Of a stretch of DNA of 64,000 bases, positions 3,511 through 3,568 are shown in pieces. Location of the stretch: contig SCTS01000007.1 of assembly GCA_004322365.1 (NCBI GenBank), forward strand, positions 18,266 to 82,265, in the 5' to 3' direction. Under the pieces are notes generated by a model. It was not told where the DNA came from and ran no database searches. It saw only the letters and a program-made list of their open reading frames with translations. Numbering within the stretch: the first letter of the stretch is position 1; every line of letters begins with the position of its first letter. The stretch is from Patescibacteria group bacterium. Lineage in GTDB: Bacteria; Patescibacteriota; Minisyncoccia; Phycocordibacterales; Phycocordibacteraceae. Position numbers and translations under genes: made by a program.

Positions 3511-3568
3511 GCTGGAAGCTGTGATCCCTGCGGATCCGACGAGGCGTCGCCTGACAGCTGGAAGCTTT
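3511..3568. repeat. about 58-bp intergenic element 'A' (AGCTGGAAGCT GTGATCCCTGCGGATC CGACGAGGCGTCG CCTGACAGCTGGAAGCTTT), copy 1 of 2
   Basis: About 85% identical to 6301-6358. Contains two short hairpins (GATCC-CTGC-GGATC and CGACG-AGG-CGTCG) and an internal direct repeat GCTGGAAGCT. Confidence 0.7.

Follow-up and report, generated by a model that had tools for sequence, protein, structure and literature searches.

The double hairpin that occurs twice in the 64-kb stretch of DNA analysed here (the window) is a real, lineage-specific repeat family, and neither a ribosomal-protein regulatory element nor a segmental duplication. Its repeat unit is a 27-nt core, CGACG-YYY-CGTCG|GATCC-GNAG-GGATC in minus-strand reading, which was found at about 40 distinct sites (after removal of duplicates) in at least seven related Paceibacterota genomes or metagenome bins. 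The family is polymorphic for presence and absence, and its pairing has been kept by compensatory changes.

The repeat unit and its two sites in the window

The two copies lie on either side of rplJ and rplL, in the following setting:

1-2751, minus strand: 23S rRNA gene (Rfam search)
3473-3508, minus strand: hairpin with U-tract resembling an intrinsic terminator, downstream of copy 1 (fold -18.4 kcal/mol, z = -6.1)
3507-3522, minus strand: heptamer spacer 3' of copy 1 (ACAGCTTCCAGCTTAA), with AGCTNNN periodicity; 9/19 aligned columns match VMHB01
3523-3549, minus strand: core of copy 1 (CGACGCCTCGTCG|GATCCGCAGGGATC); exact pattern match, 53.2 bits with model R1
3550-3569, minus strand: heptamer spacer between the stop codon of the MscS-like gene and copy 1; 10/20 identical to the VMHB01 ortholog
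3570-4277, minus strand: MscS-like membrane protein gene upstream of copy 1 (open reading frame; syntenic orthologs carry PF05552)
5248-5610, minus strand: rplL (open reading frame)
5742-6251, minus strand: rplJ, ribosomal protein L10 (open reading frame; homologs carry PF00466)
6252-6311, minus strand: partly self-complementary heptamer array from copy 2 to the rplJ ATG (lag-7 array at 6257-6295)
6312-6338, minus strand: core of copy 2 (CGACGCTTCGTCG|GATCCGCAGGGATC) in the rplJ 5' UTR; exact pattern match, 60.6 bits with model R1
6339-6358, minus strand: heptamer-type flank 5' of copy 2 (AAAGCTCCCAGTCTTTAGG), which the left flank of copy 1 and the empty site of the related locus L003 match almost exactly
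6359-6479, minus strand: divergent L10 leader candidate, apart from the repeat (Rfam RF00557 aligns over its full length, its 20.6 bits falling short of the gathering score)

The initial annotation described two copies of a 58-bp element, about 85% identical and each carrying two hairpins. Both look-alike stretches are real: a repeat search of the window recovered 3521-3574 and 6310-6363 as a two-copy family with 85% identity over 54 nt, and a pattern search gave exact matches to the 32-nt stretch GTGATCCCTGCGGATCCGACGA[G/A]GCGTCGCCT at 3521-3552 and 6310-6341 and none in 100 shuffled sequences. Structure prediction likewise folds both hairpins in each copy, on either strand. The unit size, by contrast, did not hold, as the homologous part of the two window copies is the 27-nt core plus 2-5 nt of flank and not 58 nt. 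Strain alignments isolate the 27-nt core, so that the likeness of the 58-mers comes down to this core plus generic AGCTNNN heptamers, and the family unit measures 27-34 nt set in generic heptamer spacers. A search with model R1 returned only these two full copies in the window.

The placement given for the copies, downstream of a membrane-protein gene and upstream of rplJ, is refined in that the genes are encoded on the minus strand and the copies thus lie in a 3' UTR and a 5' UTR, respectively. On the minus strand the copy 1 locus reads TAA-GAAAGCTTCCAGCTGTCAGG-[CGACGCCTCGTCGGATCCGCAGGGATC]-ACAGCTTCCAGCTTAA, followed by the terminator hairpin with its U-tract. Since the flanking genes are all on this strand, copy 1 is a 3' UTR element between a stop codon and a conserved terminator, the latter being kept in L005, L008 and L023. 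The core itself is absent downstream of the MscS-like gene in the relatives L005 and L008, and is present at the orthologous position in the sister genome VMHB01 (L023), where 26/27 nt of the core are identical. The adjacent coding sequence is 96% identical between the window and VMHB01 (290/301), whereas the heptamer spacers of 20 nt and 16 nt beside copy 1 have diverged with no change in length. Copy 1 is further bracketed by an 11-nt direct repeat, AGCTTCCAGCT. Elsewhere in the comparison with VMHB01, the 23S rRNA gene is 100% identical apart from three short indel patches at ~692-771, ~1452-1491 and ~2372-2442 (minus strand).

Copy 2 lies in the 5' UTR of rplJ, 50-107 nt upstream of the ATG and between the L10 leader and the start codon. 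Syntenic rplJ loci were collected via L10 homologs, the names of which place the window near the Kaiserbacteria/Paceibacterota, and aligned. The core is absent from this site in L003 and L004, the L10 proteins of which are 97% identical, and in the more distant L005, L007 and L008. L003 and L004 have retained the leader and the AGCTNNN array, and the 27-29-nt block that they lack is exactly the double hairpin; the array at 6252-6311, which includes the repeat families D3 and I2, is present without the core in L003, L004 and L005. As both 97%-identical strains and outgroups lack the core, copy 2 is most simply explained, as far as the alignments go, as a recent insertion at rplJ. L002 and L023 contain a quite different structured element of ~140 nt in the rplJ spacer.

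These alignments also bear on the association with ribosomal-protein leaders that the initial annotation had suggested checking. The leader region at 6359-6479 is strongly conserved across eight relatives, and RF00557 also matches L007 upstream of rplJ (26.2 bits). The L10 leader adjoins copy 2 as a separate structure, with the repeat outside the Rfam match, which stops at 6359, and relatives keep the leader without the core; the core was therefore rejected as a part of the leader, and most family copies flank unrelated genes. The rplJ copy would thus be a recent passenger between leader and start codon and not a component of L10 autoregulation, and the element beside rplJ should not be annotated as part of the autoregulatory leader. 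Further upstream, between a TPR gene and the L10 leader, a small hydrophobic ORF (6529-6708, minus strand) with a 37-aa core, MKKFFTPGFFRFLLAFSVIILISFIFLTVFGVAAKSA, is conserved in all aligned relatives, and a 37-aa gene is called there in L003, L005 and L008.

Distribution, sequence context and fold of the family

When one representative genome per species was searched with the pattern CGACGNNNCGTCGGATCCNNNNGGATC, 27 loci were returned, 23 of which are family members in five Paceibacterota/Parcubacteria MAGs (VMHB01, JBBAAE01, JAZJYZ01, JAGOSG01 and CAYNOO01). CAYNOO01 is labelled Saccharibacteria, and its S16 protein is 90% identical to that of JAZJYZ01. The 23 members share their flanks and the loop variants CTT, CCT, CCC and TTT in hairpin 1 and GAAG, GCAG and GTAG in hairpin 2; no family flanks accompany the four remaining matches, which come from GC-rich Actinobacteria, Clostridiales and Caulobacterales and are attributed to chance. 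Copy number is low, with 10, 6, 5, 3 and 1 copies per MAG in the exact-pattern scan and about 3-10 detected per genome. Further copies came from metagenomes, searched with transitions permitted in hairpin 1, and brought the family to its ~40 sites. The shared small structured repeat family anticipated by the initial annotation is thus borne out, and its refuting case of only two copies produced by a simple segmental duplication is ruled out by the occurrence of the core at so many distinct sites with unrelated flanks. Model R1 found no further full copies in the fetched loci of relatives, the phage, plasmid and viral-contig collections contained no family members, and no Rfam 15 family overlaps either window copy at the gathering threshold or at E<=10.

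The core is extragenic at all ~40 sites except for an in-frame copy in rpsP of JAZJYZ01, and the copy in L021 may overlap the end of an ORF. The insertion lies within the C-terminal tail of rpsP and is made up of 42 nt in frame: GCAGG, the core and a second AAAAAGTGAA. This 10-nt sequence therefore stands as a direct repeat on both sides of the insert. The 14 inserted residues are missing from 11/11 of the closest S16 orthologs, and the flanks of this copy resemble typical donor flanks, e.g. those in L022. The genomic contexts are otherwise mixed and comprise 5' UTRs, 3' UTRs and spacers between divergent genes (three sites). Based on crude ORF calls, about 14-17 sites are sense to their neighbouring genes, some 14 of them located behind or between genes of the same strand, and 4-5 independent sites are antisense (~3:1), the latter including the lemA-htpX spacer and a copy between ybeY and ftsA that is conserved in three genomes. 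Several copies are kept at orthologous sites in three species-level genomes.

Nearly all of the ~40 sites lie in heptamer arrays, directly after AGG. These arrays fill many intergenic regions with a 7-nt period and the consensus YAGSKTN (Y-A-G-[G/C]-[T/G]-T-N), and no lag other than 7 shows periodicity in the window, where degenerate arrays were identified as follows:

3118-3157, 4362-4441, 6251-6295, 12006-12098, 17829-17882, 18500-18539 and 18792-18843: degenerate arrays with a 7-nt period
19927-19970, 26551-26658, 36134-36176, 37015-37054, 41464-41502 and 63817-63855: further arrays of the same type

Strong heptamer arrays numbered 62 in the Paceibacterota loci versus 0 in five non-CPR control loci. 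The core is usually bounded by YAGG on its 5' side and AY(T)TAG on its 3' side; among the 23 members from the unbiased genome scan, it directly follows AGG in 20 and is followed by A in 22, commonly as AYTTAG. Preference for AGG and preference for the array are inseparable, since AGG also occurs in the heptamer consensus. Core orientation is constant relative to the G-rich reading of the array, and the cores therefore occur in both orientations relative to genes because the arrays do.

The arrays resemble the cyanobacterial STRR heptamers, which are tandem 7-bp repeats restricted to non-coding DNA, can form hairpins and have no known function (PMC2670836). They differ from STRR sequences in their consensus, their degeneracy and short length (3-8 units), their CPR host and the structured core embedded in them. 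Arrays of the YAG[G/C][T/G]TN type or its reverse (e.g. CTAAACG) are often paired in inverted orientation and give long hairpins, and the TAG-type units place stop codons in all three frames. Some arrays were wholly replaced between the window and VMHB01 where the neighbouring sequence is 95-100% identical. Binding of the HutP-like (UAG-N4)n type was also considered for these arrays.

For both strands, and for RNA as well as single-stranded DNA, the core is predicted to form two directly abutting hairpins of 5 bp. Across 40 distinct copies, 99% of stem cells form standard pairs. In hairpin 1, 29 copies have C-G at pair 4-10, nine have U-A, and single copies show the intermediates U.G and C.A; in hairpin 2, 38 copies have A-U at pair 15-26, with a single G-C and a single G.U making up the rest. 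None of 500 shuffles equalled the observed covariation score or the count of double-sided cells, a result subject to ascertainment in that most stem bases were fixed by the search patterns, and to the U-A subfamily possibly going back to a single event. Between orthologous sites (L014/L019 vs L058), changes are found in loops or are compatible with wobble pairing, and conservation of the core across genomes is very high, non-stem bases included. We conclude from these comparative data that the maintained form of the core is probably a folded single strand, either RNA or single-stranded DNA.

Two further candidates were rejected. An outer closing stem formed by the flanks is predicted for copy 1 only and was discarded because it is built on CAGCTG-type heptamers missing from the other copies. 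A Shine-Dalgarno or start-codon role of GGGATCATG was likewise dismissed, as ATG follows in only ~7/40 copies and the ATG in L017, L028 and L031 is not a gene start.

Origin and possible roles of the core

On balance, the core appears to be a lineage-specific REP-like element, i.e. a non-autonomous or recombining palindromic intergenic repeat of a narrow clade of Paceibacterota (CPR). It occurs in several copies, nearly all of them outside genes, in both orientations, and is subject to gain and loss at individual sites between close strains. Like the REP/REPIN-RAYT systems of Enterobacteria and Pseudomonas, it is a short (20-40 nt) extragenic palindromic sequence that forms hairpins, occurs in multiple copies and either orientation, often occupies 3' UTRs and operon spacers, and is vertically retained yet polymorphic; both also carry a short conserved 5' head, YAGG in the core and GTAG in the REP of E. 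coli. REPINs are described as non-autonomous elements that require a single-copy RAYT. Unlike REP sequences, the core consists of two distinct abutting 5-bp hairpins and not of one imperfect palindrome, reaches only the low copy numbers given above, and is embedded in 7-nt arrays. Regular inverted doublets as in REPINs were not found, most copies being solitary, and the few close pairs are direct repeats (L055, L026, L051) or flank housekeeping genes at a distance of ~1 kb. Neither a transposase nor a RAYT was identified in the sampled loci, where the ORFs between inverted copies encode LemA and YbeY/S21. Literature searches returned nothing relevant on CPR intergenic repeats, heptamers, or REP/RAYT in Patescibacteria, and to our knowledge no REP system has been described in CPR.

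Signatures of other mobile or repetitive elements were also sought. Flanking direct repeats average 7.05 nt, compared with 7.09 nt in shuffled flank pairings, and a general target-site duplication is thus not indicated; clear repeats were confined to two copies, that in rpsP (10 nt) and copy 1 of the window (11 nt). Terminal inverted repeats are absent, as the ends CGACG... and ...GGATC are not mutually complementary, and a MITE was rejected, the core having neither such repeats nor a target-site duplication of fixed length. PATEs derived from IS200/IS605 elements carry hairpins at their ends and insert 3' of a specific tetra- or pentanucleotide without duplicating it. The core shares with them the lack of terminal inverted repeats and of regular target-site duplication and a hairpin at each end; its position right 3' of a short conserved sequence (AGG) would be comparable, AGG being also part of the heptamer consensus. 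In contrast to PATEs, it is several-fold shorter at 27-34 nt, its hairpins are unrelated in sequence, and its strand shows no bias relative to the sign of the local GC skew (23:17, a weak test with skew taken over 8 kb only). TnpA of the IS200/IS605 type was not seen in the sampled loci, and a reading of the core as a miniature of this type is possible but unsupported. An intrinsic terminator was not indicated either, as no T-run follows the core and copy 1 has a separate terminator, and the singly dispersed copies do not form a regular array as in CRISPR.

If the core is such a REP-like repeat, it could spread by recombination or gene conversion between similar heptamer arrays, with core and heptamers supplying the homology, or a hairpin-recognising enzyme might copy the cores. 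At rplJ, the L003 sequence without the core (AAAGCTTCCAGCTTTCAGG|TTCCAGCTTTT) hardly differs from the flanks of window copy 1, and the copy 1 flanks were exchanged in full between the window and VMHB01 with the core retained. Together with the flanks of the rpsP copy, these observations are compatible with array-to-array copying by homologous or microhomology-mediated recombination, and we infer from them that recombination between arrays may be the copying mechanism. Where transcribed, the core would add two short stable hairpins to UTRs.

A tenable but less probable explanation is that the core is a host-selected cis-acting RNA motif, whose hairpins, located in UTRs and operon spacers, would block exonucleases or be recognised by an RNase or RNA-binding protein particular to the clade, and would so tune mRNA stability, processing or translation of adjacent genes. 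Compensatory changes maintain both stems, and orthologous-site copies are kept across genomes while the flanking heptamers turn over. The sense orientation prevails by ~3:1, often with the core 1-46 nt past a stop codon or just before a start codon; this lean and the orthologous retention accord with a host function no less well than with selfish spread. At least four independent sites are nevertheless antisense to the surrounding operon, the contexts are heterogeneous and include coding sequence, and the rplJ copy is dispensable in 97%-identical strains. Single-sided changes are often G.U on the CGACG...GGATC strand, but counts of wobbles and mismatches do not separate the two strands, and a 5-bp stem falls below the length that RNase III requires.

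Quite unlikely is a function as a double-stranded DNA site, in which dimeric DNA-binding proteins would recognise the palindromes GATCC-N4-GGATC and CGACG-N3-CGTCG; examples would be a regulator, a nucleoid protein, or a protein related to restriction-modification systems or recombinases. Such a site would work in either orientation and would account for the very high conservation across genomes, which extends to non-stem bases, and the core does contain GGATCC and two GATC sites. Symmetric compensatory and canonical forms co-exist within single genomes (L051, L055), however, a pattern more readily explained by base pairing than by base-specific recognition through a single protein, and the positions in 3' UTRs and coding tails are not operator-like. 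Within the window, the distribution of GGATCC, GATC and related words is unremarkable, and restriction-site avoidance or a decoy function was rejected on the same grounds. A local segmental duplication, chance similarity of spacers or a part of the L10 autoregulatory leader, for which the restriction of full copies to two in the window, their similar flanks and the abutment of copy 2 on the leader might have spoken, is already refuted by the ~40 sites elsewhere with unrelated flanks, the zero matches expected by chance and the conservation of the leader, with its Rfam match ending at 6359, in relatives without the core.

Other structured elements and implications for the clade

The initial annotation also placed one hairpin of the repeat inside the tRNA-His cassette. 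The hairpin is present, one nucleotide off the position first given, and lies outside the tRNA itself, 139 nt past its 3' end:

48741-48753, minus strand: isolated hairpin 1 (CGACGCCTCGTCG) in a tRNA-linked element (partial R1 match of 13.5 bits, model positions 8-20)
48892-48964, minus strand: tRNA-His

The recurring 13-nt hairpin (CGACGAGGCGTCG) is located within a strongly structured 220-nt region (z = -5.6) downstream of tRNA-His; the region closes with a duplicated tRNA 3' end. Behind tRNA-Ser, at ~59565-59690, lies a paralogous segment in which the hairpin reads TGATGCCTCATCA (TGATG-CCT-CATCA) and the second, abutting hairpin changes from CACT-GTCG-AGTG in the tRNA-His element to CCCT-GTCG-AGGG. 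Model R1 covers only hairpin 1 in the tRNA-linked elements (13.5 and 8.3 bits). Membership in the family thus did not hold beyond this hairpin: the tRNA-linked element is a different repeated element of ~130 nt, which has in common with the core the 13-nt hairpin and the layout of two abutting hairpins, and homology of its hairpin with the 27-nt family is possible. The structured paralogs extend directly downstream of tRNA-His and tRNA-Ser at 48672-48890 (minus strand) and 59522-59700 (plus strand). Each opens with a long, perfectly paired hairpin at the 3' end of the tRNA, continues with covarying hairpins and the conserved block AAAATAYTTAGWGACTCGTGACCGA, and finishes with a degenerate copy of the T-arm/acceptor 3' strand of its own tRNA. 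They have no Rfam match and look like att-site remnants of a tRNA-targeting integrative element, or like a tRNA-linked small RNA.

A structured leader of ~140 nt that ends at the start codon precedes rplL in the window (5604-5745, minus strand), and was also found in L023 (1603-1745 and 2245-2385), L002 (5617-5758), L021 (70-214), L036 (9814-9958) and L055 (3885-4065). It consists of TTAACCCTGTTAAAT, two abutting hairpins, ATTTAACAGGG and a hairpin TAAGATTTT...AAAATCTAA-NN-ATG. Before rplJ in L002 and L023 it replaces the heptamer/double-hairpin spacer, and in L036 it precedes an L27-like gene. Ten of its 34 predicted pairs covary (fold z = -4.7) and it has no Rfam match, making it a candidate ribosomal-protein leader or MITE. 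Furthermore, a 35-nt near-perfect palindrome, GTATAATTTAACGGTCGTTAAATTATACTATACAG, occurs in intergenic DNA at 5083-5117 and 53884-53918, 48.8 kb apart and with 91% identity. The hairpin CTAGG-CGATGCTT...AAGCATCG at 47730-47778 (minus strand) combines the left flank of the family and the start of hairpin 1 with a longer stem and loop, and may be a diverged relative of the core (R1 11.7 bits).

A triloop hairpin abutting a tetraloop hairpin is also found in the tRNA-linked element and in the ~140-nt leader before ribosomal-protein genes. It is conceivable, if rather doubtful, that core and heptamer arrays form a previously undescribed, CPR-specific system of intergenic cassettes, in which STRR-like arrays are rapidly overwritten or homogenised and a dedicated hairpin-recognising enzyme or RNA-binding protein uses the core to copy, anchor or process the cassettes. 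Were this so, a single protein could read the double hairpin, the tRNA-linked element and the ~140-nt leader.

The genomes of CPR/Patescibacteria are tiny and usually held to be poor in repeats and mobile DNA. The narrow Paceibacterota clade studied here contains at least three families of small structured intergenic elements, together with 7-nt arrays that are specific to the lineage and change far more rapidly than the DNA around them. The double hairpin provides a concrete marker for strain-level insertion polymorphism, for recombination of spacers and possibly for a hairpin-binding activity in these unculturable organisms.
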